From the NCBI GenBank assembly GCA_964471565.1, contig CAYYFK010000002.1, positions 849 to 64,848 on the forward strand: a DNA stretch of 64,000 nucleotides. The letters run 5' to 3'. This document shows, piece by piece, positions 28,572 through 43,080 of this stretch; the first letter of the stretch is position 1, and each line of letters starts with the position of its first letter. Under the pieces are notes generated by a model. That model had not been told where the DNA came from. It did not search any database and saw only the letters and a list, made by a program, of their open reading frames with translations. The translations under genes were made by a program, and so were the position numbers. This stretch comes from Candidatus Woesearchaeota archaeon (lineage in GTDB: Archaea; Nanobdellota; Nanobdellia; SCGC-AAA011-G17; PNOQ01).

Positions 28572-29033
28572 ATGTTATACTTCGAACAAATCCTAACAAT
28601 TGCGCTTTTTACTCTGATACCCTTGCTAGAGCTTAGAGCAAGCATACCGATAGGAATTGGCATGGGTGTACCTTGGCCAATTGTTTTTATTACCGCAGTT
28701 GTAGCTAATATTCTACTGGGTCCACTAATTTATATTTTTCTAGATAAATTTATTCATTTACTAATAAGATATAAATTATTTAGAGTTCCTTATAATAAGT
28801 TAGTAAGAAGAACACAAAGAAGAATTCATAAAAAAGTAGAGAAATACGGAGAATGGGCGGTAGCGCTTTTTATAGCAGTTCCATTACCGGGAAGCGGAAG
28901 CTATTCTGGAGCGTTAGCAGCATATCTAATAGGACTAGGATATAAAAAATTCATAATTGCAAATATTATTGGAGTATTAATAGCTGGGATTATAATAACA
29001 TTAGCATCTTTAGGGCTTTTTTCTCTTCTTTAA
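28572..29033 (+). CDS. small multidrug-export-like membrane protein (COG2426-like)
   Basis: Four TM helices with LELRASIPIGIGMG and LPGSGSYSGALAAYLIG motifs. Confidence 0.45.
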   Translation: MLYFEQILTIALFTLIPLLELRASIPIGIGMGVPWPIVFITAVVANILLGPLIYIFLDKFIHLLIRYKLFRVPYNKLVRRTQRRIHKKVEKYGEWAVALFIAVPLPGSGSYSGALAAYLIGLGYKKFIIANIIGVLIAGIIITLASLGLFSLL

Positions 29034-29546
29034 AAAACTCTTTTCATAAAAATATTTCAAATCAGAATAATAAGGTATTTTATCTACTTTGAACTTCTTA
29101 ACCAAAAATATCCAAACCAAAGCAATATACACTCCAGAAACAAAGTTCCAGAACAAAAGATGAACTGCATCAAAATAACTAGCCCCGAATTCAACGTTTA
29201 AAACAACTAATATTACAATTCTTAGGAGATTCATGCCCAAAATTAGCAAACTTCCTAAGAGAAACATTTTCAAACCTTTTTTCCAATTTAAATTCTTTAA
29301 ACCAATAATAAGAATAAATAATAAATAATATGCTGCAGGGGCAACACAAGCCTCAATAAATTTAAATCCTGTATCCCCTATACCTATACTATCTCTAATT
29401 AGCAAAACATCATAAAACAAATTTAATAAAAAATAGCTCAAATTAACAGTAATTGGTGCCAAAATAACATAAAATATAGGATAACCAAGGGTAACACCCA
29501 AAATAATAAGAAATCTTACAATTAATTGATAATAATACTTAATCAT
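29010..29546 (-). CDS. archaeosortase/exosortase-like mini membrane protein (pacearchaeosortase-like)
   Basis: 178 aa, 5-6 TM; candidate active-site Cys (IEACVAPAAYY) and Arg (NLLRIVIL) in exosortase-like positions; divergent from a C-terminally anchored surface protein. Confidence 0.45.
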   Translation of the reverse strand: MIKYYYQLIVRFLIILGVTLGYPIFYVILAPITVNLSYFLLNLFYDVLLIRDSIGIGDTGFKFIEACVAPAAYYLLFILIIGLKNLNWKKGLKMFLLGSLLILGMNLLRIVILVVLNVEFGASYFDAVHLLFWNFVSGVYIALVWIFLVKKFKVDKIPYYSDLKYFYEKSFLKKRKKP

Positions 29547-29664: not shown

Positions 29665-31308
29665 ATGAACAAAAAAATATCATTTTTAGGAGTATTTTTG
29701 CTTTTAATAGCTGTTTTTGCTAATGCATCTGTAACTTCTGAAAATGTCACAGACTCAGTAAATCCGGGAGAAATAGTATCCGGAGAGTTCACGTTACTTA
29801 ATGATTATGGTACAAATTATTCAAATGTGACCTTTGAGTTGGGGATTTTAGGGTTAATTGAAGAAGATGTAACATTTAATCCAGAGATTATAACCCAATT
29901 TGACATTGATCAGGAAGAAACAGTTGAATTCAGTTTTAAAGTGCCAGAGCACCAAGAGACTGGAACATATACAGGAAAAATAACTGTAAAAGCAGATGAT
30001 GGAGCAACAGTTGTAGAAACTGATGCACTTGTATTTGATTTTGATGTTAATGAACAAAGAGCATTTAGTATAAGTCCAACTGAAGACACAATTTCTGTTG
30101 ATCAAGGAGAATCAGAAGATTTATTTCTTGATATCACAAACGATGGTAACGTTATTTATGACTTAGTAACACTTACTTTTGATTTAGATGAACCATTTGA
30201 AGATGATGGTGGAAATCAAATTGAAGTAACATTTGATCAAAACGATTTTACATTAAATCCAGGTCAAACAAAACAAGTTACTATAACAGTTACACCAGAA
30301 GAAGATCAATACTTGGGTTACTTAACTGAAAATATTCAGGTTATAGCTAAAGCTGGAGACATAGAAGATCTAAAAGAATTTGAACTAACTGTTGATACAA
30401 CATCAGATATCGTTGAAGTTGAATTAGACGACGACGATTTAGATGATGAATTAGAACCGGGCGATACATTCCATTTCGAAATAGATGTAGAAAACATAGC
30501 AGACTATGATTTGGAAGACATCGAAGTTAAGGTGTGGGTTATAGACATTGACAGTGGAAGCGACCTTTCTGAGAAAGCATCAAAATTTGACTTAGATCAT
30601 GGAGATGTTGATGATGTTAGATTTGATTTCGAAGTTCCGTTAAGTGTTGATGAAGAAGAATTTGATATCAAAGTAAGAGTGGAAGGAGAAGATAAAGACG
30701 ATTCAAGTAACAAATTTGAAGTTACAAAAATCTTCAGAAATCAAGTAGATGTAGTTAAAGATAATAGCTATGAAGTCTATTTCGATGATATCAGTTTGTC
30801 TTCAACTGACTTAAGATGTGATTCCGAATTTAGAGTCTCTTTTGACTTGATTAATGTCGGAGATAACAATCTAGATGATATGTATATTAAATTATTTATT
30901 AATGAACTTGATCTAGAATACACATCAGAGACATTCAACCTAGATGCTGATGACGAAGACGATAGAGATAAATCACTTCAATTTAATGTAAGGCTTCCTT
31001 CAAATCTTGAAAAGAATAGTTACGAGATGAAATTTTATGCATATGATGAAGACGATGATCAATTTGATGTTGAATCATATGTAATTAGCGTAACACCATG
31101 TCAAGGTATAGAAGATGCTGATGACGAAGAGATTGTAGTAACATCTAACCAAGATGATAATCAAAATGTTGTATTCCTACCTACAGGATGGGCAGGTCTT
31201 GGATTAAACCAAGATACATGGACAACAATATTTTGGATTTTGGGAGATATTGTCTTAGTGATTGTAGCATTATACTTCTTAGTCTTGTTATTCAAGAAAA
31301 GAAGATAA
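29665..31308 (+). CDS. hyper-acidic repeat surface protein with signal peptide and C-terminal TM plus basic tail (S-layer/sortase-substrate candidate)
   Basis: Signal peptide MNKKISFLGVFLLLIAVFANA; four repeats of about 110 aa; D/E runs (DDDDLDDE, DADDEDDRD); C-terminus LPTGWAGLG...IVLVIVALYFLVLLFKKRR. Confidence 0.55.
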   Translation: MNKKISFLGVFLLLIAVFANASVTSENVTDSVNPGEIVSGEFTLLNDYGTNYSNVTFELGILGLIEEDVTFNPEIITQFDIDQEETVEFSFKVPEHQETGTYTGKITVKADDGATVVETDALVFDFDVNEQRAFSISPTEDTISVDQGESEDLFLDITNDGNVIYDLVTLTFDLDEPFEDDGGNQIEVTFDQNDFTLNPGQTKQVTITVTPEEDQYLGYLTENIQVIAKAGDIEDLKEFELTVDTTSDIVEVELDDDDLDDELEPGDTFHFEIDVENIADYDLEDIEVKVWVIDIDSGSDLSEKASKFDLDHGDVDDVRFDFEVPLSVDEEEFDIKVRVEGEDKDDSSNKFEVTKIFRNQVDVVKDNSYEVYFDDISLSSTDLRCDSEFRVSFDLINVGDNNLDDMYIKLFINELDLEYTSETFNLDADDEDDRDKSLQFNVRLPSNLEKNSYEMKFYAYDEDDDQFDVESYVISVTPCQGIEDADDEEIVVTSNQDDNQNVVFLPTGWAGLGLNQDTWTTIFWILGDIVLVIVALYFLVLLFKKRR

Positions 31309-31371
31309 TTTTTCTTTTTTCTTTTTTAATTTTTGGTTAATTTTATATAATACCTTTCTAAATAATCCAAT

Positions 31372-32133
31372 ATGAGAAAAGAGGATGAAAAAAAAGTAGT
31401 TATAGAACTCAAGGGAGTTTGCAAATACTATCGTATGGGGGAGAACATTGTTAGGGCAGTAGACGGGGCCTCTCTAAAAATTAAGGAAGGAGATTTTGTT
31501 GCAATCATGGGGCCATCTGGTTCTGGAAAATCCACAATGATGAACCTAATAGGAAGTTTAGATGTTCCAACAAAGGGAAAGATATTTTTAGATAGAGAAG
31601 ATATTTCAACATTCAGCGAATCAGATTTAGCTCAATTACGTGGGAAAAAAATAGGATTTATTTTTCAATCATTTAATTTAATTAATAACCTTACTGCAAA
31701 AGAGAATGTTATGATTCCAATGATATTTCAAGACCATGATTTAGATGATAGGAATTTTAGAGCAAATAAATTAATGCAATTAGTTCAACTTACAGATAGA
31801 ATGCATCACTCTCCTGGAGAACTTTCCGGAGGACAGCAACAAAGAGTTGCAATTGCAAGATCATTAGCAAACTCTCCAGAAGTTATTCTTGCAGATGAAC
31901 CAACAGGGAACTTAGATACAAAAACTGGAGCAACAGTTATGGACTTCTTAGAAGATTTAAATAAAAAAGGCAAAACAATAATTATGGTTACCCACGATCC
32001 GGATTTGGCAAAAGACCATGCTGATGTAGTATATTGGCTAAAAGATGGAAAGATTGAAAAAGTAACAAAGAAAAAAAATGGGTGGAGCAAGGAACAAAAT
32101 AAAAAACTAAGCAATCCTAAGGAGAATAAGTAG
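31372..32133 (+). CDS. ABC transporter ATP-binding protein (MacB/LolD/FtsE type)
   Basis: Walker A GPSGSGKST, signature LSGGQQQRVAIARSL, Walker B ILADEPTGNLD, H-loop. Confidence 0.9.
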   Translation: MRKEDEKKVVIELKGVCKYYRMGENIVRAVDGASLKIKEGDFVAIMGPSGSGKSTMMNLIGSLDVPTKGKIFLDREDISTFSESDLAQLRGKKIGFIFQSFNLINNLTAKENVMIPMIFQDHDLDDRNFRANKLMQLVQLTDRMHHSPGELSGGQQQRVAIARSLANSPEVILADEPTGNLDTKTGATVMDFLEDLNKKGKTIIMVTHDPDLAKDHADVVYWLKDGKIEKVTKKKNGWSKEQNKKLSNPKENK

Positions 32134-32134
32134 G

Positions 32135-33358
32135 ATGATAAGTGATTTCTTCTCTCTTGCAATAAAAAACCTTAAACACAGAGGAATTAGGTCATGGCTA
32201 ACATTATTAGGAATATTTATTGGAGTAACAGCAGTAGTTTCTTTAATCTCGCTAGGAAACGGTCTTCAATTAGCTGTTGCAAGCCAGTTAGGAATTAGTG
32301 CAAATGAATTGGTCACCGTCCAAGCTGGAGGTTTAAGTGGTTTTGGTCCACCAGGAAGTAATGTAGTTGACCCACTTACTCAAGATGATGCAGATGCTAT
32401 AGAAAGGCTAAGTAGTGTTGAAAATGCTGTAAGAAGAAATATTAATTCTGGCAAGATAGAATTCAATGATGTTATTCAATTTAGGTATGTAGGGAGTTTA
32501 CCTGAAAACAAAGCAGATAGAGATTTGATATACACACAATTAGACACAGAAATACTTTCTGGGAGACTAATAAAAGGAGGAGATTCAGGAAAGGTATTAC
32601 TAGGTTATAATTTTTATAATAAACCAGAGGAATGGGATGGAAAATCTGCATCTATCGGAAAAAGCATATCTGTAAATGATAAAAACTTCGAAATAATTGG
32701 AATTCTTGATAAACAAGGAAGCATTATTATGGATAATGTTGTCGTTATGAATGAAGGGGATATGAAAGATCTCTTTGGATTTGGTGACGAAGCAGGAATA
32801 ATAGTTGTAGAGCCAAAAGATAAAGAAAAAATACACAAAACAAAACAAGATATTGAAAAATTAATGAGACAAAGAAGGGGAGTTGATGAGGGAGAAGAAG
32901 ACTTTGAGGTAAGTACCCCGGAAGCAACACTATCTACAGTAAATGACATACTTACAGGTGTTCAGATCTTTATAGCAATAGTAGCACTTATCTCTGTCTT
33001 TATTGGGGCAATAGGAATAGTAAATACTATGACAACCTCCGTTCTAGAAAGAAGAAAAGAAATTGGGATTATGAAATCAGTTGGAGCTAAAAATGGCCAT
33101 ATATTTTTACAATTTTTTATAGAATCTAGCTTACTAGGTTTAATAGGAGGAATAATTGGGGCAATATTTGGTACGATTATTGGACTTTCTGGAACAATTG
33201 CGCTAAATAATTTTATGGGGACAGAATTACCATTAAATGTGGATTTTGTATTAATATTTTTCTCTTTATTGGGCAGCTTTCTAATTGGGGGAATTGCAGG
33301 AATAGTTCCAGCAATGAAAGCAGCCAAACAAAATCCAGTGGAGGCACTTAAAGGATGA
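32135..33358 (+). CDS. FtsX/MacB-family ABC permease with large extracytoplasmic domain
   Basis: N-terminal TM, 230-aa external domain, C-terminal 3-TM FtsX module (SVLERRKEIGIMKSVGA); AAGGAG Shine-Dalgarno upstream. Confidence 0.8.
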   Translation: MISDFFSLAIKNLKHRGIRSWLTLLGIFIGVTAVVSLISLGNGLQLAVASQLGISANELVTVQAGGLSGFGPPGSNVVDPLTQDDADAIERLSSVENAVRRNINSGKIEFNDVIQFRYVGSLPENKADRDLIYTQLDTEILSGRLIKGGDSGKVLLGYNFYNKPEEWDGKSASIGKSISVNDKNFEIIGILDKQGSIIMDNVVVMNEGDMKDLFGFGDEAGIIVVEPKDKEKIHKTKQDIEKLMRQRRGVDEGEEDFEVSTPEATLSTVNDILTGVQIFIAIVALISVFIGAIGIVNTMTTSVLERRKEIGIMKSVGAKNGHIFLQFFIESSLLGLIGGIIGAIFGTIIGLSGTIALNNFMGTELPLNVDFVLIFFSLLGSFLIGGIAGIVPAMKAAKQNPVEALKG

Positions 33359-34560
33359 TAAGTTTAGAAAGTATAAGATACTCCCTGAGGAATCTAAAAC
33401 AAAATAAAGGTAGAAGCCTACTAACAATCTTCTCAATATTGGTTGGGATATCAACAATTTTCATTTTCATTAGCTTTGGTTATGGATTATATAATTACAC
33501 AAATGAACTAACCTCTAGCTCGTCAGCAGATAAGGTTCTTATAATGCCAAGAACAGCAGGAGGATTTGGAGCAGTAGAAGGAGTGGTACTAAACGATACT
33601 GACGTAGATGAGATAGAAAAAGCAGCAGGAGTGTATGATGCTACAGGGCTATATTATGATGCAGTATTAGTAAAACAAAATAGTGATCAAAGATATACCT
33701 TCATCATAGGCTATGATCCAAAAAAAGATTTTGTAATGGAGTCTTTCAATATAGATGTAGAAAAGGGGAGGCTACTAAGATCTGGAGATATGAGAAAAGC
33801 AGTCTTGGGATACAATTATTTAATTTCAGATAAAATATTCTCAAAAACATATGATGTAAATGACAATATAGAAGTAAATGGGATCAATCTAAAAGTTGTA
33901 GGTATTATGGAAGAAATTGGAAATCCACAAGATGATTCACAAGTATACATAAGCAACGATCAGTTTGAAGAGATGTTTCCAGACCAAGAATCATACGGAC
34001 AAATAATTGCCAAAGTAGATATAAAAGAGATAGAAAAAGTAAATGAAAATATAGAAAGAAACCTAAGGAAATCTAGAGATGTTGAAGAAGGAAAAGAGGA
34101 TTATTATGTCCAATCATTTGATGAATTAATTGAACAATTTGCCAGCGCTCTAAATATAATAATTGGTTTTGTTATATTAATAGCATTAATTTCTGTTCTA
34201 GTATCAACCATAAATACTGCGAATACAATGATAACCTCTGTGCTTGAAAGATATAAAGAAATAGGAGTATTAAAAGCAATGGGGGCAAAGAACTCAAGTA
34301 TATTTGAAATATTTTTATTCGAAAGTGCATTCCTCGGAATAGTTGCAGGAATAATTGGAGTAGCATTTGGATGGGGAATATCTTATTTGGCAGGAGTAAT
34401 ATTAAAGAGCATGGGCTGGGGATTCTTACAACCATATTTCTCTATATATTTATTTGTGGGGTTGATTTTATTTGCTGGAATAACTGGAGCAATCTCGGGA
34501 GTTTTTCCTGCAGTTAGAGCTTCAAAAACTAATCCAGTAGATGCATTAAGAAATGAATAA
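33355..34560 (+). CDS. FtsX/MacB-family ABC permease (second copy)
   Basis: Same architecture (SVLERYKEIGVLKAMGA); ATGA overlap with upstream permease. Confidence 0.8.
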   Translation: MISLESIRYSLRNLKQNKGRSLLTIFSILVGISTIFIFISFGYGLYNYTNELTSSSSADKVLIMPRTAGGFGAVEGVVLNDTDVDEIEKAAGVYDATGLYYDAVLVKQNSDQRYTFIIGYDPKKDFVMESFNIDVEKGRLLRSGDMRKAVLGYNYLISDKIFSKTYDVNDNIEVNGINLKVVGIMEEIGNPQDDSQVYISNDQFEEMFPDQESYGQIIAKVDIKEIEKVNENIERNLRKSRDVEEGKEDYYVQSFDELIEQFASALNIIIGFVILIALISVLVSTINTANTMITSVLERYKEIGVLKAMGAKNSSIFEIFLFESAFLGIVAGIIGVAFGWGISYLAGVILKSMGWGFLQPYFSIYLFVGLILFAGITGAISGVFPAVRASKTNPVDALRNE

Positions 34561-34579
34561 CAAAAAGTTTATATAGGAA

Positions 34580-35491
34580 ATGTACAAAATGATAAATATG
34601 AAAAAAGAGAGTTTTATTGGGAAAACAATATTAAGTTTAGTATTACTTTTAATTTTTGCAAGTCCGGCCATAGGGGCAACAGGTTCAGGGTGTGACTTGG
34701 GATCATCATTGATAAATCAAGATCCTTATCCAGCATTACCAGGGGAATATGTTGAGATATTATTCCAAATAGATGGGGTAGGAGATTGTGAAGAGGGCGC
34801 TGTAGCAGATTTGTTTTTAGAGTACCCATTTTCTTTAGATGGGGGAGACACAACACGGAGAATAGAATCCCCAACTTATATAGGTGGAGACCACAATTAT
34901 AATTGGAACATTTTATACAAAGTTCGAATAGATAGGGATGCACTGGAGGGAGATTATGATTTGGAGCTTAGATACACAGATGGAAGAGTATTGCCTTCAG
35001 ATGAGTATACTTTTGATAGATTTCCAATAACAATTGAAGATGGAAGAACAGATTTTGAAGTTCATGTAGAAAGCTATAATTTTGAAACTAGAAATTTAGT
35101 TTTAGAAATACTTAACATTGGGAACCAAGATATAGAGGCATTAACTATAGAAATACCAAAACAAGAGAATGTAATTATAAAAAGTTCAAACAGAAATATT
35201 GTTGGAGATTTAGACTCGAATGAATATACAACTGCAGATTTCGAGGCAATTCCTTCAGAAGGAGAAATAGTTATTAGATTACATTATACAGATTCAACTA
35301 ACGAGAGAAGGATGTTAGGAAAAACAGTTTACTATGACCCTGTATATTTTGTAGATTCTTTAGAGAATGTAAAACCAGACAAGACAACTACATATATAGT
35401 TGTAGGGATTATTGTTATTCTAGGAGTTTTCTTATTTTTAAGAAGGCGTAAAAAAAATAAGTCAAAAAAGAAAAACAAATTCGATATTTAA
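34580..35491 (+). CDS. secreted protein with C-terminal TM anchor and poly-Lys tail
   Basis: Signal peptide, 250-aa beta-rich ectodomain, C-terminus YIVVGIIVILGVFLFLRRRKKNKSKKKNKFDI; last gene of the ABC/FtsX operon. Confidence 0.5.
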   Translation: MYKMINMKKESFIGKTILSLVLLLIFASPAIGATGSGCDLGSSLINQDPYPALPGEYVEILFQIDGVGDCEEGAVADLFLEYPFSLDGGDTTRRIESPTYIGGDHNYNWNILYKVRIDRDALEGDYDLELRYTDGRVLPSDEYTFDRFPITIEDGRTDFEVHVESYNFETRNLVLEILNIGNQDIEALTIEIPKQENVIIKSSNRNIVGDLDSNEYTTADFEAIPSEGEIVIRLHYTDSTNERRMLGKTVYYDPVYFVDSLENVKPDKTTTYIVVGIIVILGVFLFLRRRKKNKSKKKNKFDI

Positions 35492-36443: not shown

Positions 36444-36514
36444 AGCGCACGCCCGGAATCGAACCGGGGATCAGAGGGTTGCAGCCTCTTGCCTTACCGC
36501 TTGGCCACGTGCGC
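36444..36514 (-). tRNA. tRNA-Cys (anticodon GCA)
   Basis: Minus-strand GCGCACG/CGTGCGC acceptor, anticodon arm AGAGG-CTGCAAC-CCTCT, T-arm CCCGG-TTCGATT-CCGGG, discriminator U; TATA ttttataaata about 25 nt upstream; overlapping track ORF 36317..36544 is spurious. Confidence 0.8.
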
Positions 36515-36533
36515 ACAATGGAAGTACATTCAA

Positions 36534-36547
36534 TATATTTATAAAAG
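36534..36547 (-). promoter_or_regulatory. TATA box for tRNA-Cys
   Basis: Minus-strand cttttataaatata centred about 27 nt upstream of the tRNA 5' end. Confidence 0.4.
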
Positions 36548-36575
36548 TTTTCTCCACCCAGATTTAACTAAAAAA

Positions 36576-37088
36576 ATGAAAATTTCAAGAAAAGTAAGAA
36601 ATGGAGTAACAATAGCAATACTATCTTTAATGCCATTCATAGCTAGCGATACAAGTAAAAAACAAACCGAACAAGTACTAAAAAAGGCTGAAAATATGAG
36701 ATTAATCAATGAATATGATATTTCTCAATTAAATCTTTCAACAAAAGAAGAAAAAGAGTTACAAGCAAGAGTAGAAGAAAAACTAGAAGCTTACACACCA
36801 AAAACAAAATTTGCTCTACCATACATTGGATCAGATGTAAAAACAGAATTACAAGGTATAGACAGAGAAGGGTTCACACTAAAATACAGATTAAATTCAG
36901 ATTTGCCAATCCAATTCAGATTGGGAATGGGGACAAAAACTAAAACAAAATTCAATGGAAATTCAAGTATAGAGGAAATAAACTTTGATCTGTCTAGAAA
37001 GATATTTGGAGCAAACACATTATACCAAGTCAATATATCCCAAGACAATCAACCAGAATATAGGTTCTCATTAAATTTTAATTTTTAA
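36576..37088 (+). CDS. hypothetical secreted/membrane-anchored protein
   Basis: Start moved to the internal Met (MKISRKV...) because the track ORF overlaps tRNA-Cys; N-terminal hydrophobic segment. Confidence 0.4.
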   Translation: MKISRKVRNGVTIAILSLMPFIASDTSKKQTEQVLKKAENMRLINEYDISQLNLSTKEEKELQARVEEKLEAYTPKTKFALPYIGSDVKTELQGIDREGFTLKYRLNSDLPIQFRLGMGTKTKTKFNGNSSIEEINFDLSRKIFGANTLYQVNISQDNQPEYRFSLNFNF

Positions 37089-37217: not shown

Positions 37218-38063
37218 CTAAAGTTTAAGAGCTCCAATATCATTTATAAATTTATCTACAACACTCTTTTTACTACACCAAATCACCCAAGAATTGTTCG
37301 CTTTATCAAAATAAGGGGGTCTTACAGAAAGTCCAACAAATCGAAATAATAAATAAACCTGATTTAAAAATTTCTTTGATTTTTGCCTTAATTGAAAACA
37401 TAATTTTCCTCTATGAAAATATTTATTCCCATCGCTATCCATCAATCCCCTTAGAAAATACTTTATATAAACAGAATCATTTTTTATTTTAGCTGGAACT
37501 CTAATGGAATCATATTTCTCACCAATAGGAATTTCATAATAAGTGTTCAAGAAAAATAATAAAGCCTTAGAATAGATACAAACATCATAACAGCCCTTGC
37601 CCTTATGACAACTTGGCCTAATTCCAAAAAGATGCTCCATTAATTCAGAAACGTGATTTATTCTCTCTTTCCCTTTAACAGCAATCCTAACAGAATAACT
37701 TTGCCTCTTTAATTCCCTTTCTTTACTTATACAAAGACATCCATCTCCTAACAACAAACCCAAAAAGTAATACAAACGAAAATCCACATTTTCTGGAAGA
37801 TTAATTGTATTCCCACTATTAATAGACAAAGAACTAACATTTACTCTTTCAATATTATTTTTTTCACAAATATCAATTAAACAAGAAACCGGAATAGGTC
37901 TTTCTTTTCGTTTCCAATAATAAATAGATCTTTCAGAAACCCCTTCAACCTCTTTAGGATTTAAATTTGAAATAGTTTCTTCAAGGGCAAGATCATTAAA
38001 AAGGATGCAAATATTCTTTTTATTCGATATCAATCTTTTTAAATCTTTAACACCCAATTCCAT
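37218..38063 (-). CDS. LAGLIDADG-family homing-endonuclease-like protein (two motifs)
   Basis: YYFLGLLLGDGCL and KYFLRGLMDSDGNKYF dodecapeptide motifs; start moved to MELGVKDL (ATG 38063) because the upstream 42 codons read through the promoter element. Confidence 0.65.
   Translation of the reverse strand: MELGVKDLKRLISNKKNICILFNDLALEETISNLNPKEVEGVSERSIYYWKRKERPIPVSCLIDICEKNNIERVNVSSLSINSGNTINLPENVDFRLYYFLGLLLGDGCLCISKERELKRQSYSVRIAVKGKERINHVSELMEHLFGIRPSCHKGKGCYDVCIYSKALLFFLNTYYEIPIGEKYDSIRVPAKIKNDSVYIKYFLRGLMDSDGNKYFHRGKLCFQLRQKSKKFLNQVYLLFRFVGLSVRPPYFDKANNSWVIWCSKKSVVDKFINDIGALKL
37243..37256 (-). promoter_or_regulatory. candidate TATA box for the tRNA-like gene, inside the 3' end of the LAGLIDADG ORF
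   Basis: Minus-strand taaatttataaa about 30 nt upstream of the tRNA-like 5' end. Confidence 0.3.
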
Positions 38064-38083
38064 GGTCTTCAATAGTGAAATCC

Positions 38084-38123
38084 ATTTATAAATTATTTCC
38101 GCGTGCGTGACAAGCTGACAAGA
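38084..38123 (-). promoter_or_regulatory. TATA box plus upstream GC-rich direct-repeat box (copy B)
   Basis: Minus-strand CTTGTCAGCTTGTCACGCACGCGGAAATAATTTATAAAT, about 21 nt upstream of the LAGLIDADG ATG; matches copy A at 33 of 35 upstream positions. Confidence 0.45.
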
Positions 38124-38172
38124 AAACCTTACTACAGCAAAGATTATAAAGATAAATAACTCCTCAAAATCA

Positions 38173-38550
38173 ATGGTAATGAAATACACGGCAAATCATA
38201 AGTACAGGCCAAATCTACAAGATGGAGATGTAGAATGTCCAATTAAATTAGAACAAGGCATCTTAGAATTATATGGAAAATATAAAACAGGATCTATTCA
38301 CAAGGGTCCAATGAAGAGAGTATTTGGAAGCAACTATGAAATTTTTAGTAGAAAAGTTAATAGATTAATAAGAGGATCAAGTGTTTCATTGGAAGACAGA
38401 GATAAATTAAAACTCAGCGATGGAAGAAGAATCAAAAGTTTATCCCTAGAAATATGTTTAGAAGAGGGGATAGAAAGAGCTAAGAAACAAAGAAAAGAAT
38501 ACGAAAAACTCTACAGAATCAGACCCGAAGTGGAGAGAATGCGATTCTAA
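38173..38550 (+). CDS. hypothetical basic protein
   Basis: 125-aa ORF divergent from the LAGLIDADG gene and upstream of leuS. Confidence 0.35.
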   Translation: MVMKYTANHKYRPNLQDGDVECPIKLEQGILELYGKYKTGSIHKGPMKRVFGSNYEIFSRKVNRLIRGSSVSLEDRDKLKLSDGRRIKSLSLEICLEEGIERAKKQRKEYEKLYRIRPEVERMRF

Positions 38551-38591: not shown

Positions 38592-41195
38592 ATGAATTAC
38601 AATGAAATAGAGAAAAAGTGGCAAGAAGATTGGGAAAAAGCTCAAATCTATCAAGTAGATGAAGATTCAAAAAAACAAAAGTTCTACTGCCTAAGCATGT
38701 ACCCATATCCATCGGGTTCAGGATTACATATAGGTCACGCCTCAAACTTCTCAATAACTGATGTTTTTTCTAGATTCAAAAGGATGCAAGGTTTTAACGT
38801 TCTACATCCCATGGGATTTGACTCATTTGGATTGCCTGCAGAAAACGCCGCAATAAAAAACAACTCTCATCCAAAATTATTTACTGAAAAAGCGATAAAG
38901 AATTTCATAAAACAAATGAAAGAGCTAGGTCTTAGTTATGATTGGTCTAGAGTTATTTATTCTCACGATCCCGACTATTACAAATGGAATCAATGGTTAT
39001 TTCTACAAATGTATAAAAAAGGATTAGCATACAAAAAAACTGCTCCAGTTAATTGGTGTACAAAATGTAATACTGTTCTTGCAAATGAACAAGTTGTAAA
39101 TGGTTGCTGTTGGAGACATGAAGATACCGAGGTAGAAATCAAAGAATTAAATCAATGGTTTTACAAAACAACAGATTATTCCAAGGAGCTAGTTAAGGAT
39201 TTAGAAAAACTAGATTGGCCAGAAGAAATAAAACAAATGCAAAGAAATTGGATTGGAGAATCTGAAGGAACAATAGTAAATTTCAAATTAAAAGATACAA
39301 AAGAAGACATTCCAATTTTTACAACAAGAGTAGATACAATCTATGGAGTTACTTTTATGGTTTTTGCTCCAGAACATCCAAAAGTTCAAGAGCTAGTAAA
39401 AGGAACAAAGCATGAAAAAGACGTAAAAGAATTTACAAAAAAAGTAATGCTTCAAGATAAATTCGAAAGAACCGCAGAAGATACAGAGAAAGAAGGTCTA
39501 TTCACTGGAAAATATGCAATAAACCCCTTAACAAATGAGGAGATTCCAATTTACATAGGAAACTTCGTAATCCCCGATTATGGTGGTGGCGCAGTTATGG
39601 CAGTACCAGCCCACGATCAAAGAGATTTTGAGTTTGCAAAGAAATATGACATTCCAATAAAGGAAGTTATAATTCCTAAAGACAAAGTAATAGATAAATT
39701 AGAGAATGCTTATGTCGAAGATGGAATTCTAATTAATTCAGATAAATTCAATGATTTAAATAATAGAAAAGCAATCGAAGAAATAACAAAACACTTAGAG
39801 AAAAAGAGATTAGGAAACAAAACAACAAATTACAGATTAAGAGATTGGTTACTATCAAGACAAAGATATTGGGGAACTCCAATTCCAATTTTGTATTGTG
39901 ATAAATGTGGATTAGTTCCAGAAAAAGAAAAAAATCTTCCAGTAAAATTACCAGAAGATGTCAATTTCAAATCTGGGGGGAACCCGTTAGAAACTTCAAA
40001 AGAATACCAAAACGCAGTATGTCCAAAATGTAAGGGAAAAGCAAAAAGAGAAACAGACACAATGGACACATTTATTGATTCTTCATGGTATTTCTTAAGA
40101 TACTTAGATCCCAATAATGACAAGAAAATATTTTCTAAGAAAAAAGCAGATTATTGGATGCCAATAGACCTTTACATAGGTGGAAAAGAACACGCAACTG
40201 GCCACCTAATTTATTGTAGATTCATAACTAAAGTCTTGAAAGATCTAAAATTAATAAAAACAAAAGAACCAATTCAAAAACTTTTCAACCAAGGAATGCT
40301 ACATAAAAATGGAGTAGTAATGTCTAAGTCAAAAGGAAATGTAGTTACGCAAGAAGATATATCAGAAAAATATGGGATAGATACAGCAAGATTTTTCCTA
40401 TTTTCAATTTCTTCTCCAGAAAAAGACAAAGAATGGTCAGATAAAGGAATAGAAGGATCATTCAGAGTTATAAACAAAATTCTACCATTAGCAGAAAAAA
40501 AATTCTCAAAAGATAAAACTCCAGAGCTAGATAATATACTAAACAAAACAATAAAAAATATAACAGAAACGATTGAAAACTTACAATATAATTTATCAAC
40601 AATTTATTTAACGGAATTAATTAACTTCCTATCTAGAAATGAAATAACAAAGGAGTCCGTAGAAACATTAGCTAAGTTACTTTCTCCATTTACACCACAT
40701 ATAGCAGAGGAACTATGGAATAAATTAGGAAATAAAGAGTTTGCCTTAGAACAAAAATGGCCAAAATATTCAGAAGAAAAAATAAATCCGGAGATTGATG
40801 CTCAAGAAGAACTAGTAAAAAACACGATAAACGATGTTAAAGCAATTATGGATTTAGTCAAAATAGAACCAAAAAAAGCAACTATCTCAGTAGCAGAAGG
40901 ATGGAAATACGAATTAATTAAAAATTTTAAAGAAGAATTGAAAAAAACAAGAGAACTTTCAAAATTAATAAAAAAAGTAATGGTTCAAGAGCATGCAAAA
41001 GAGATTTCAAAAATAATTCCTTCATTATTAAGAAACGAATCTAAAATTCCAAAAGTAGTTTTAACACAACAAAAAGAGTTTAGAGTTTTAGAGAAAAACA
41101 GAGAATTATTAGAAAAAGAATTAAACATAGAAATAGAAATAAGAAGAAACAACGAAAAAGCAATGCCCTCTAAACCATCAATAAAAATTGAATAA
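38592..41195 (+). CDS. leuS: leucyl-tRNA synthetase
   Basis: HIGH variant (GLHIGHASNF), KMSKS variant (VMSKSKGN), CP1 editing insertion, Zn knuckles (CTKCNT, CPKCKGK). Confidence 0.9.
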   Translation: MNYNEIEKKWQEDWEKAQIYQVDEDSKKQKFYCLSMYPYPSGSGLHIGHASNFSITDVFSRFKRMQGFNVLHPMGFDSFGLPAENAAIKNNSHPKLFTEKAIKNFIKQMKELGLSYDWSRVIYSHDPDYYKWNQWLFLQMYKKGLAYKKTAPVNWCTKCNTVLANEQVVNGCCWRHEDTEVEIKELNQWFYKTTDYSKELVKDLEKLDWPEEIKQMQRNWIGESEGTIVNFKLKDTKEDIPIFTTRVDTIYGVTFMVFAPEHPKVQELVKGTKHEKDVKEFTKKVMLQDKFERTAEDTEKEGLFTGKYAINPLTNEEIPIYIGNFVIPDYGGGAVMAVPAHDQRDFEFAKKYDIPIKEVIIPKDKVIDKLENAYVEDGILINSDKFNDLNNRKAIEEITKHLEKKRLGNKTTNYRLRDWLLSRQRYWGTPIPILYCDKCGLVPEKEKNLPVKLPEDVNFKSGGNPLETSKEYQNAVCPKCKGKAKRETDTMDTFIDSSWYFLRYLDPNNDKKIFSKKKADYWMPIDLYIGGKEHATGHLIYCRFITKVLKDLKLIKTKEPIQKLFNQGMLHKNGVVMSKSKGNVVTQEDISEKYGIDTARFFLFSISSPEKDKEWSDKGIEGSFRVINKILPLAEKKFSKDKTPELDNILNKTIKNITETIENLQYNLSTIYLTELINFLSRNEITKESVETLAKLLSPFTPHIAEELWNKLGNKEFALEQKWPKYSEEKINPEIDAQEELVKNTINDVKAIMDLVKIEPKKATISVAEGWKYELIKNFKEELKKTRELSKLIKKVMVQEHAKEISKIIPSLLRNESKIPKVVLTQQKEFRVLEKNRELLEKELNIEIEIRRNNEKAMPSKPSIKIE

Positions 41196-41255: not shown

Positions 41256-41897
41256 ATGAAAGATGAGACATTTATGCTGTTATCAATGAAAGATTCAAAA
41301 AATGTAGCTAATGCTATGTCGAATGAAACAGCACAAAAAATAATTTCTTATTTAGCAGAACACAAAGAATCAACAGAATCAGATATTGCAAAAAATCTAA
41401 AGGTTCCGCTACCAACGGTACATTATAATATTCAACAATTAAAAAAAGCTAAACTAATTGATGCAAAAGAATTTTTTTGGAGTAAAAAAGGAAAAGAAAT
41501 GTTAGTTTACAAATTAGCAAAGAAGTATATTATAATCTCTCCTGACAATTCAGAGAATTCCTTATCAAAATTAAAAACCCTTCTTCCAGTTACCTTGTTA
41601 AGCCTAGTGGGCTCTGGAGCAATTTATTTTTGGCAGAAAGCAAAATTAACATCAACAAAACTAATTGGAACAGCCTCAGATGCATTTGCCAATGGCGGAG
41701 CGATGGAAAAAGCAGCATTGGACGCCAGTAAGGAAGAAATTGCTGGAAAAATGATGGCTGGTGGGGATCAAGTTGCAGATCTAACACAGGAGGTAGTAAC
41801 CAAAGTGATACCTCCAAACTACGCATTATTTTTCTTAATGGGATCATTATCAGTAATTCTATTAATTTTACTGCTCTCACTACTAAGAAGAAAATAA
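41256..41897 (+). CDS. membrane-anchored winged-helix (ArsR-like) regulator
   Basis: N-terminal HTH (TAQKIISYLAEHKESTESDIAKNLKVPLPTVHYNIQQLKKAKLI), central and C-terminal TM segments. Confidence 0.4.
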   Translation: MKDETFMLLSMKDSKNVANAMSNETAQKIISYLAEHKESTESDIAKNLKVPLPTVHYNIQQLKKAKLIDAKEFFWSKKGKEMLVYKLAKKYIIISPDNSENSLSKLKTLLPVTLLSLVGSGAIYFWQKAKLTSTKLIGTASDAFANGGAMEKAALDASKEEIAGKMMAGGDQVADLTQEVVTKVIPPNYALFFLMGSLSVILLILLLSLLRRK

Positions 41898-41988: not shown

Positions 41989-43080
41989 ATGAAAAAATTA
42001 CTAAGCATGATGTTCATAGGACTCATAGTATTTTCAACATTGGCATTAGCCGTTGATGTAGATACTAGTGAAACACAAATGAAAGAGAATTGCTGGTACT
42101 TACCATCTCTAACTCCGCAGAAATGTGTAGATGAGTACGGACCAAACTACGTTCCGCATGAAAACGATGAAGTACAACTAGATATAGTTTTTGTTGTTGA
42201 TTCAACAGGATCTATGCATGATGAACTCAGAACAATAAAAGAAGAGTTAATCAATATAATGGATAAAATTAATTCAGGACAACCCAGACCAGACGTAAGA
42301 GTTGGAGTTGTAACCTACAGAGATTTTCCAGAAAATAGAAATGAATACTTAACCAAAAGCCACGAACTAACATATGATTTAGAAGAAATAGAAGATTTCA
42401 TAGGAAAGATTGAAGCTCGTGCTGGTGGAGATTATGAAGAAGCAGTTGAAATGGGATTACATAAAGCAATACATGATATGAAGTGGAGAACATCCTCACA
42501 TAAAGCAATATTGTTAATTGGAGATGCTCCTGCTAGGGACCACCATTATCAAGACCAACCAAATTATGGAAACTATCCAGAAGTAGAAGCACATGTAGCA
42601 ACAACAAGATTTGCTCCGGAGGATTGGAATCAACATAATTATGTTTCTTACAACTGGAAAGATGCAATAGAAGATGCACAAGATAGGAACATAAGAATAT
42701 ACACAGCATCCGGTTCAGGAATGAATCAAGAAGGGATAAATCAATGGAAGACAATTGCTGGGAAAACTGGAGGATCATATATTCAATTGATCTACGAAAG
42801 AAGAAATATAATTGAATATTATGAAGAAAGATCAATTCCAGTTGAATACATTCCAGAAGCAATAGAGGATCCAGATTATGAAGAATCTACAAATTCCATT
42901 ATGACTAACAATTTTGGACTCTTTGCCAGTAAATCCATGATGGGTATGGCTGAAGACGCTGGAGTAGATTATTCTGGTTCATTAGACGATATAACTGGAG
43001 AAATAGTTAAAGAACAAACCAACACACAAACAAAAAACTTTTTAGAGAAGATTATTTCCAAACTTTTGTTTTGGGAATAA
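41989..43080 (+). CDS. secreted von Willebrand factor A (vWA) domain protein
   Basis: Signal peptide; MIDAS DIVFVVDSTGSMHDEL; downstream T and D motifs (LIGDAP). Confidence 0.7.
   Translation: MKKLLSMMFIGLIVFSTLALAVDVDTSETQMKENCWYLPSLTPQKCVDEYGPNYVPHENDEVQLDIVFVVDSTGSMHDELRTIKEELINIMDKINSGQPRPDVRVGVVTYRDFPENRNEYLTKSHELTYDLEEIEDFIGKIEARAGGDYEEAVEMGLHKAIHDMKWRTSSHKAILLIGDAPARDHHYQDQPNYGNYPEVEAHVATTRFAPEDWNQHNYVSYNWKDAIEDAQDRNIRIYTASGSGMNQEGINQWKTIAGKTGGSYIQLIYERRNIIEYYEERSIPVEYIPEAIEDPDYEESTNSIMTNNFGLFASKSMMGMAEDAGVDYSGSLDDITGEIVKEQTNTQTKNFLEKIISKLLFWE

Follow-up and report, generated by a model that had tools for sequence, protein, structure and literature searches.

To our knowledge, every characterised ATP-binding cassette (ABC) system of type VII is defined by its extracytoplasmic partner, be it MacA-TolC, LolA, EnvC/PcsB or TesA; we know of no partner or function for the archaeal members of this type, including the textbook nucleotide-binding domain (NBD) MJ0796. 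Here, we analyzed a cluster of four genes, encoding an ABC ATPase, two permeases (PermA and PermB) and a fourth, membrane-anchored protein, in a stretch of 64,000 nucleotides (the window) from contig CAYYFK010000002.1 (assembly GCA_964471565.1) of a Candidatus Woesearchaeota archaeon. On balance, these four genes probably encode one envelope machine, in which an ATPase dimer and a PermA-PermB heterodimer would constitute a type VII (MacB-fold) ABC system with a dedicated type I membrane partner bearing two immunoglobulin-like (Ig-like) domains of the CARDB type. Archaeal MacB-type genes and COG1361 genes, to which the fourth gene is related by profile comparison, are each routinely annotated already; our literature search found no description of an archaeal MacB-type/COG1361 partnership, nor of a partner for archaeal type VII ABC systems.

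The ABC transporter genes and the fourth protein

The four open reading frames (ORFs), all on the plus strand, have the coordinates (table 1) that were given by an earlier reading of the letters without database searches (the sequence-only reading). They are real genes and not chance ORFs, because Pfam scores lie above the gathering thresholds, motifs and topology are in place, and the fourth protein has more than 1,100 homologues. The ATPase shows a Walker A motif (GPSGSGKS), a Q-loop, LSGGQ, a Walker B motif (ILADEP) and an H-loop (THD), a set that predicts a catalytically competent NBD. Its top NCBIfam alignments were with the MacB NBD, LolD, DarD and FtsE, at scores below the equivalog cut-offs for the MacB NBD, LolD and FtsE, and its best PDB relatives by sequence were MJ0796 (E 5.6e-69) and 5xu1_A.

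Both permeases scored above the Pfam gathering cut-offs of 25.5 bits for FtsX and 27 bits for MacB_PCD (table 1). Each has four hydrophobic helices, placed by hydropathy at residues 22-40, 278-296, 323-341 and 372-390 in PermA, where the secondary structure of the AlphaFold2 model agrees, and at 21-39, 268-286, 319-337 and 358-376 in PermB; an extracytoplasmic loop of ~235 residues lies between transmembrane (TM) helices TM1 and TM2. These ectodomains are full MacB_PCD domains (Porter and Sabre), covering profile positions 1-206 of 207, and the same annotation placed them with MacB and not with the Lol type, for which the scores of both permeases stayed below the cut-offs. At the sequence level, the matches of both permeases to MacB (5lil, 5gko, 5nik), 5xu1 and YtrF were much stronger than those to LolC/E or FtsX, the PDB matches of PermB being YtrF (9o9x), 5xu1_M and MacB. 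The PermA model (predicted local distance difference test, pLDDT, 81.4) gave the same picture in Foldseek: MacB 5gko_A was the best match (E 7e-23, template-modelling score TMq 0.69), followed by 5xu1_M (TMq 0.66, TMt 0.69) and then by LolE, YtrF, HrtB and YbbP, with FtsX far behind (8ymc, E 8e-7); its ectodomain alone matched the isolated MacB and YknZ ectodomains (3ftj, 5f9q) with TMt 0.75. These Pfam domains, in conjunction with the matches of the PermA model to 5gko and 5xu1, bore out the earlier assignment to the MacB-type (type VII) systems. The system nonetheless lies outside every characterised family of that superfamily, because the NCBIfam equivalog scores for MacB, LolCDE and FtsEX all fall short of their cut-offs; in particular, the MacB equivalog NF007826, with a cut-off of 966 bits, gave 236.8 for the ATPase, 124.8 for PermA and 101.8 for PermB.

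PermA and PermB are paralogues (32% identity, E 2e-58 by BLASTP). That there are two different permeases, as the sequence-only reading had it, also holds among relatives, since genes of both types are present in 65 of the 80 related loci described below; with two separately conserved paralogues and one ATPase gene, the system fits a LolCDE-style heterodimer in its gene content.

The fourth protein proved to have the signal-like N-terminal helix, the C-terminal TM helix (269-287) and the basic tail that had been read from its sequence, the tail being of lysine and arginine. Its AlphaFold2 model (pLDDT 86.4) consists of two beta-sandwich domains (strands 41-152 and 159-252) and a helix at 269-298. 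We found 1,194 homologues in a database clustered at 90% identity, all of ~290 amino acids, all from metagenome-assembled genomes (MAGs) of DPANN archaea and essentially none annotated; an exhaustive profile search with this protein reached 1,782 clusters at 50% identity (E <= 1e-3). An alignment of 35 sequences showed an invariant cysteine just after the signal peptide and a second, near-conserved cysteine, the conserved blocks INQDPYPAxPG, YPFSLD, FEILNxGxxDIEALTxEIPKQ, GDLDSNEYTTADFEA and YTDSxNERR, and a variable C-terminal TM helix followed by a K/R tail of 15-25 residues. A lipoprotein reading of the invariant cysteine was rejected: it is not in a lipobox context, positions -3 to -1 being variable, with E, T and D among the residues found there. 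Because this cysteine pairs with the near-conserved one and both are missing from the three-domain branch introduced below, we read the two as a probable subfamily-specific disulfide.

Domain searches placed the fourth protein in no described adaptor class. Its sequence had no significant match in the PDB, and its model retrieved from the PDB by Foldseek only generic tandem Ig-like proteins, with TM-scores below 0.4. Pfam gave no match at threshold for the family, and the window protein itself had no CARDB or NPCBM_assoc match at the gathering threshold; weak CARDB matches were seen in 8 of the 35 family members (best E 0.0015). Neither Pfam nor the fold model showed lipoyl, beta-barrel or hairpin domains in the family, and a Pfam scan of ten neighbouring proteins found no HlyD, biotin-lipoyl or membrane fusion protein (MFP) domain. 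The sequence-only reading had called the operon tripartite; in the MacA-TolC sense, this has to be given up, since the partner is a tandem of Ig-like domains and not an MFP.

Conservation and co-variation of the module

We addressed the coupling of the four genes by a census of related loci. A relative of the fourth protein with two domains is present in 214 GTDB species genomes, of which the best 80 loci were taken, 48 of them with full flanks (at least 3 kb on both sides); the closest relatives in GTDB are MAGs labelled Woesearchaeota, Pacearchaeota or Nanoarchaeota. Of the 48 full-flank loci, 47 have a permease gene within 3 kb of the fourth gene, all have one within 10 kb, and 45 have an ATPase gene within 10 kb. 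The synteny of the four-gene module, which the sequence-only reading had made a touchstone of its proposal, was thus kept in relatives. Orientation is variable: relative to the fourth gene, the nearest permease gene is convergent (43 loci), co-directional (25) or divergent (4). The reverse search, starting from three PermA homologues, found a homologue of the fourth protein beside PermB or one gene away in all three loci. These results support the fourth protein as a genuine conserved partner of the transporter.

Unrelated genes often break up the ABC cluster in relatives, where the distance between ATPase and partner genes reaches 7.5 kb. Such insertions (L173 6212-6943; L174 4605-4913 and 7516-8607; others) include a nucleotidyltransferase gene that separates PermA from PermB, small ORFs that separate ATPase from PermA, and a DUF2130 gene ahead of the fourth gene. 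The module evidently puts up with them and is still not dispersed.

More distant family members, of 330-580 amino acids, have one or two extra CARDB-like domains and bear the NCBI name 'COG1361 S-layer family protein'; three-domain relatives do carry CARDB/NPCBM_assoc Pfam matches. The two-domain family aligned with the three-domain COG1361 branch in HHalign at a probability of 100% (E 5e-58), with the middle domain as the sole large gap, so that the fourth protein is, by profile alignment, a shortened member of the COG1361 lineage. Coupling to the transporter was equally tight in this branch. In a census of 80 metagenome loci, 58 of the 59 with room for an ATPase gene have it immediately upstream, 53 of 54 have a permease gene downstream, and the 26 full-flank loci all have both; the partner gene has 4-nucleotide start/stop overlaps on both sides. 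A single permease gene was found in 57 of the 58 loci with a full-length permease match, and three in the remaining one. Compared with the window proteins, the ATPase of these modules is 59% identical and the permease 31-32%, and PermA and PermB are equidistant from this single permease, so that neither stands out as the ancestral one. Thus, the architecture of the partner varies in step with the number of permeases: a two-domain partner is found with two permease paralogues (65/80 loci), and a three-domain partner with one permease (57/58).

A divergent regulator with a helix-turn-helix (HTH) domain, DUF7343, lies within 3 kb in 10 of the 26 full-flank three-domain loci. It is membrane-anchored and 5' of the module in L004 (5167-6306), L089 (4170-5264) and L090 (3844-4945); in the same three loci, a small secreted or membrane protein of ~150 amino acids also precedes the module, and in L090 an extra ORF of 106 amino acids, Cys-rich and lipoprotein-like, lies between the ATPase and COG1361 genes.

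The lineage extends to haloarchaea and to a second exporter superfamily. A tblastn search of plasmids with a three-domain member found a CARDB protein of Haladaptatus whose gene abuts that of an MMPL transporter (resistance-nodulation-division, RND, superfamily), and COG1361/CARDB proteins are present in 38 haloarchaeal plasmid records. In all four loci inspected, on megaplasmids of Haladaptatus, Haloarcula, Haloferax and Halobacterium (L091, L175-L177), the COG1361/CARDB gene directly precedes the MMPL gene, and three of these loci have an adjacent gene for a TetR or HTH regulator. We found no account of this pairing in the literature searched. These proteins resemble the fourth protein in having a signal peptide, tandem domains, a C-terminal TM helix and a basic tail, and the three-domain DPANN branch aligned with them over 306 columns (HHalign probability 99.3%, E 4.5e-20). 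In the literature, we found COG1361 only as a presumed surface-layer (S-layer) or adhesin gene; COG1361 genes have been predicted in Thermoplasma and Ferroplasma, and S-layers have been visualised only in Picrophilus (PMC10354927). Because members of both branches adjoin exporters, and because COG1361 genes are predicted even where no S-layer was visualised (Thermoplasma, Ferroplasma), the 'S-layer' label looks like a misnomer, and the family probably behaves like an exporter accessory.

The evolutionary rates of the four proteins point the same way. Over 63 loci, the ATPase had a median identity of 70% to its window counterpart, each permease 58% and the fourth protein 45%, whereas the S-layer protein encoded next to the cluster is 27-43% identical in all genomes of the window's clade apart from the nearest relative (L006, 80%). 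By these figures, the partner evolves like a machine component and not like a surface coat. In a mirror-tree analysis of the 47 genomes with all four proteins, the divergence of the fourth-protein ectodomain correlated with that of the two permease ectodomains (r of 0.72 and 0.68, or 0.52 and 0.47 as partial r with the ATPase controlled for), and far less with that of the permease TM domains (partial r 0.14 and 0.16). Contact between the ectodomains of partner and permeases fits this signal, which is suggestive only.

Proposed mechanism, rival explanations and neighbouring genes

From the homology, fold and topology of the parts, and from their tight coupling whatever the gene order, we proposed a mechanism modelled on the solved MacB, LolCDE, HrtBA, YbbAP and FtsEX systems (PMC5985334, PMC12646458, PMC7668044). 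ATP binding and hydrolysis in the cytoplasm would be relayed along the long TM1/TM2 helices and so reach both of the large extracytoplasmic domains (mechanotransmission). By opening and closing at the membrane's outer face, these ectodomains might remove a substrate, through expulsion or extraction, from the outer leaflet or a pseudo-periplasm, and the substrate would not be carried across the bilayer. The Ig-like partner, anchored by its own TM helix next to the permeases, would stand beside or over their ectodomains as an accessory subunit (a guide, cap or acceptor), in the role that MFP adaptors, LolA, EnvC or TesA have in bacteria. The window module may derive from the wider archaeal three-gene module (ATPase, COG1361 protein of three or four domains, single permease) by duplication of the permease and loss of the middle domain or domains of the partner.

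Several points weigh against this machine. We infer the physical complex, the direction of transport and the role of the partner by analogy, and that role rests entirely on context, the partner having a generic fold and no enzymatic or known adaptor domain. No clue to a substrate was found, and the DUF7343/TetR regulator of the ancestral modules is absent beside the window cluster. The mirror-tree signal could also reflect a shared fast evolution of extracellular regions. Finally, 43 of 72 related loci have the fourth gene on the opposite strand, and in the window it probably has its own promoter, so that strict co-transcription of the four genes is not the rule.

A bolder proposal goes beyond the one-machine reading and is tentative, in our estimate on the doubtful side: COG1361-type proteins might not be S-layer proteins at all but the archaeal counterpart of bacterial periplasmic adaptors, a single homologous family physically partnering exporters of at least two unrelated superfamilies, type VII/MacB pumps in DPANN archaea and MMPL/RND pumps in Halobacteria. 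The window version would then be a core envelope machine of Woese-, Pace- and Nanoarchaeota, its asymmetry would reflect 1:1 docking of the partner on one ectodomain, and it could possibly move lipids or other amphipathic molecules in cells unable to make their own. The interest of the locus would be higher if COG1361 proteins were indeed general archaeal exporter adaptors.

Type VII systems include the pure mechanotransducers FtsEX-EnvC and FtsEX-PcsB (PMC7668044, PMC6355983), and the window system could likewise be a signal or force transducer that moves no substrate, with ATP switching the Ig-like partner to control, for example, remodelling at the division site or of the S-layer. A partner that is non-enzymatic and membrane-tethered would suit such a role, as would a module found among housekeeping genes in very small genomes and, in the window, lacking an adjacent regulator. 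We nevertheless consider a transducer unlikely. The permeases have full MacB_PCD ectodomains instead of the small FtsX loop, MacB, Lol, Hrt and YbbP all come far ahead of FtsX structures among the matches of the PermA model, and the family models fall short (FtsX_Gpos, 56.6 and 40.6 bits for the permeases against a cut-off of 225; FtsE, 210.7 bits for the ATPase against 264.85). In addition, homologous partners accompany MMPL exporters, which are true transporters, and ancestral modules carry divergent HTH or TetR regulators. Such divergent regulators are typical of inducible efflux.

The heterodimer could instead work as an extractor of the Lol kind, pulling lipid-anchored proteins or lipids from the outer leaflet and passing them to the Ig-like partner, possibly for the benefit of lipid-auxotrophic DPANN cells. 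Two permease paralogues with one ATPase are the composition of LolCDE, the module is conserved in reduced DPANN genomes, and LolE, HrtB and YbbP are clear structural matches of PermA. All three of these are membrane extractors. However, MacB and Spr0694-0695 surpass LolC/E in both sequence and fold; the lolCE model TIGR02212 gave 64.9 and 68.1 bits for the permeases against a cut-off of 362.45, and the LolD model TIGR02211 gave 229 bits for the ATPase against 307.75. Furthermore, the cluster has no LolA-like gene, the invariant cysteine of the fourth protein is outside a lipobox context, and the ancestral module has a homodimeric permease. A Lol-like extractor therefore strikes us as quite improbable.

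The sequence-only reading had correctly taken the two genes upstream of the cluster for an archaeosortase-family protein and a surface protein, as both NCBIfam scores exceed their cut-offs (table 1), and had proposed a functional link between this pair and the ABC system. The two matches also place the window in the DPANN archaea. With such a link, the ABC system might, for example, extract, extrude or assemble sortase-processed surface proteins, and the fourth protein might be a sortase substrate. The order sortase, S-layer gene, ATPase, PermA, PermB, fourth gene is indeed seen in the window, L002, L006-L010, L013, L014 and L017, and the C-terminal TM helix and basic tail of the fourth protein superficially resemble a sorting signal (weak TIGR01167 match). 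However, a sortase gene lies within 10 kb of the fourth gene in just 8 of the 80 loci (6 of the 48 with full flanks), all within the window's clade of at least 56% identity; relatives at 56-58% identity (L003, L012, L015) are already without a sortase nearby, and the deeper three-domain modules inspected have no sortase neighbour. Synteny with the surface genes is thus lost beyond the window's own clade. The ten S-layer orthologues share a C-terminal signal made of [FY]LPTG[WF], ~15 residues, FW[IV]xGD, a TM helix and three or four basic residues; this PACE-CTERM sorting motif is present in none of the 35 aligned fourth-protein sequences, and the fourth protein of the window had no NF033506 match. 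A sortase-substrate role for the fourth protein was rejected accordingly, with neither element of the sorting motif present and a K/R tail of 15-25 amino acids in their place. Since the sortase is found at only 8 of 80 loci, the fourth-protein family has no sorting motif, and the S-layer and ATPase genes have a terminator-like T-tract and a TATA box between them, the adjacency is a clade-specific accident of gene order, and we give the functional link very little credence.

The weakest reading, on which the four genes are coincidental neighbours, with a generic antimicrobial-peptide or drug exporter beside an independent S-layer or adhesin protein, could appeal to the NCBI name of the relatives, to the generic Ig-like tandem fold as in adhesins and to a gene that often lies on the opposite strand and has a promoter to itself, but is essentially refuted by the synteny censuses (47/48, 58/59 and 53/54 loci in two deep branches and three orientations), by a partner gene set between ATPase and permease genes with 4-nucleotide overlaps in one branch, by an evolution much slower than that of the real S-layer protein, and by the prediction of COG1361 genes in two genera whose S-layers were not visualised, Thermoplasma and Ferroplasma (PMC10354927).

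The layout of the window cluster bears on its transcription (table 1). Of the junctions given by the sequence-only reading, the ATGA overlap and the 19-nucleotide gap stood, and the 2-nucleotide junction did not: by direct reading, the ATPase ends with TAG at 32131-32133 and a spacer of 1 nucleotide precedes the PermA ATG at 32135. The PermA/PermB overlap occupies 33355-33358, and the PermB stop (34558-34560) is followed by 19 nucleotides and then the first ATG of the fourth gene. Shine-Dalgarno-like motifs, AAGGAG and GGAGG, lie ~10 nucleotides 5' of the PermA and PermB starts. In archaea, transcription terminates at oligo-T tracts, and a spacing of 22 nucleotides between TATA box and ATG is typical of archaeal promoters. 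The oligo-T runs behind the S-layer gene look like an archaeal terminator separating it from the ABC cluster; because these runs and a TTTATATA box lie between the S-layer stop and the ATPase start, the cluster looks like a transcription unit of its own, probably with its own promoter and a leaderless first gene. The second TTTATATA box is a possible independent promoter for the fourth gene. Orthologues of the fourth protein begin at a methionine aligned with its residue 7, and the box is 22 nucleotides upstream of the corresponding ATG, so that the true start is probably at 34598 and the product would have 297 amino acids.

Table 1. Features of the ABC cluster and of the adjacent sortase/S-layer genes, with positions in the window.
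Feature	Position	Strand	Basis
Pacearchaeosortase	29010..29546	-	NCBIfam 139.6 bits, cut-off 80
PACE-CTERM putative S-layer protein	29665..31308	+	NCBIfam 126.8 bits, cut-off 110
Oligo-T runs (terminator-like)	31310..31335	+	Sequence read; directly 3' of the S-layer gene stop 31306-31308
TATA-box-like element TTTATATA	31342..31349	+	Sequence read; 22 nucleotides 5' of the ATPase ATG
ABC ATPase, 253 amino acids, MacB/LolD/FtsE sequence type	31372..32133	+	ABC_tran 118.4 bits (Pfam), motifs intact
Permease A (PermA), 407 amino acids	32135..33358	+	MacB_PCD 84.6, FtsX 86.8 bits
Permease B (PermB), 401 amino acids	33355..34560	+	MacB_PCD 74.0, FtsX 72.9 bits
Second TTTATATA box	34568..34575	+	Sequence read; between PermB and the fourth gene, 22 nucleotides 5' of ATG 34598
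Fourth protein, 303 amino acids as mechanical ORF	34580..35491	+	AlphaFold2 fold, homologues, synteny

The window has a G+C content of ~31%, with archaeal genes for ribosomal proteins L1, L10 and L12 just upstream of the cluster region, and no second copy of the ABC system was found within its 64 kb. An identical fourth protein in an identical cluster is present on 21 contigs from several marine metagenomes (JGI 3300007510, 3300008952; SRR8062323), and the organism is therefore recurrent in those samples. Next to the sortase gene, and convergent with it with a 3' overlap of 24 nucleotides, is a gene for a Sm_multidrug_ex/VTT-domain membrane protein (28572-29033, plus strand; PF06695, 110.7 bits). 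The order L1, L10, L12, coiled-coil protein, Sm_multidrug_ex, sortase, S-layer gene recurs in L002, L006-L010, L013, L014 and L017, an arrangement that hints at a sortase-linked role for the Sm_multidrug_ex protein. The PACE-CTERM signal (window 31150-31305; L006-L017) has an LPTG core like the bacterial LPXTG sortase motif, and its cognate enzyme belongs to the exosortase/archaeosortase family; a literature search found no paper on pacearchaeosortase.

Downstream of the fourth gene, tRNA-Cys(GCA) (36444-36514, minus strand) overlaps the 5' end of a mechanical ORF (36489-37088, plus strand) with a TTG start at 36489; this ORF either is not a gene or starts further in, as gene callers have it in L178 (170-amino-acid product). 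Between the ABC cluster and leuS (38592-41195) is a free-standing gene (37218-38189, minus strand) for a LAGLIDADG-like homing endonuclease, and genes at the equivalent position in L002 and L178 had a faint match to PF14528 (LAGLIDADG_3). The gene 3' of leuS (41256-41897, plus strand) encodes a winged-HTH protein with a C-terminal TM helix, similar in general design to the DUF7343 regulators, and is followed by a gene for a secreted protein (41989-43080, plus strand) that is von Willebrand factor A-like by eye only.

Comparison with known systems

The one-machine reading would give archaeal type VII systems a candidate class of partners, whose coupling to exporters is deep and almost invariable, and the name 'COG1361 S-layer family protein', which annotation has spread widely, is probably an error. 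On this reading, the very reduced genomes of the DPANN lineage would hold a conserved envelope machine. Testable systems are at hand in the COG1361-MMPL pairs on megaplasmids of haloarchaeal genera, which include genetically tractable species, and the small DPANN complex would be suited to cryo-electron microscopy.

Methanocaldococcus jannaschii supplies the best solved relative of the ATPase, MJ0796 (PDB 1f3o, 1l2t), an archaeal MacB/LolD-type NBD. Only this NBD has been studied, and its physiological role was never defined (PMC8277102); our literature search found no paper mentioning MJ0795 or MJ0797. Of the bacterial systems, MacB, Spr0693-0694-0695 of S. pneumoniae (5xu1) and YknXYZ of B. 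subtilis share with the window system the permease fold and topology (four TM helices and a Porter/Sabre ectodomain) and the ATPase type. Spr0694-0695 and YknYZ are also alike in having separate ATPase and permease polypeptides and a third, membrane-anchored extracytoplasmic partner encoded alongside, whereas in MacB proper (MacAB-TolC) the NBD is fused to the N-terminus of the permease. These pumps differ from the window system in that their adaptor is an MFP/HlyD protein anchored at the N-terminus and not a tandem Ig-like protein anchored at the C-terminus, and in that their permease is a homodimer; the window system, in an archaeal host, has two permease subunits and no outer-membrane duct.

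LolCDE, an asymmetric type VII system, comes close in other respects, with two paralogous permeases, one ATPase gene, a dedicated extracytoplasmic partner and clear fold matches in LolE/LolC; it differs in its LolA-type partner, which has no counterpart in the window cluster, and in family models whose scores here are far below cut-off. Because the ancestral archaeal module is homodimeric, the window heterodimer would have arisen independently of that of LolCDE. FtsEX differs in the small extracellular loop of FtsX and in FtsX/FtsE family cut-offs that the window genes do not reach.

The bacterial MFP/HlyD adaptors are likewise membrane-anchored accessories beside exporters of more than one superfamily; we infer from this a functional analogy only, of which the formation of an oligomeric channel is not a part, since they have an unrelated fold (lipoyl, beta-barrel, hairpin) and are anchored at the opposite, N-terminal end. 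Within the archaea, the haloarchaeal COG1361/CARDB-MMPL pairs share a homologous ectoprotein, its layout and a gene abutting that of an exporter, although that exporter belongs to an unrelated superfamily driven by the proton-motive force, the partner has four or five domains, and TetR-type regulators accompany it in Haloarcula and Haloferax. The three-domain COG1361 modules of DPANN archaea have a homologous partner and equally tight coupling; they differ in one or two extra middle domains, in the lack of the conserved Cys pair, in a single permease, in a partner gene placed between those of ATPase and permease, and in the divergent DUF7343 HTH regulator that is often present. Taken together, what is new in the window, compared with all of these, is a type VII ABC machine whose partner would be an Ig-like protein anchored at the C-terminus in place of an MFP, and whose heterodimeric permease would have evolved independently.

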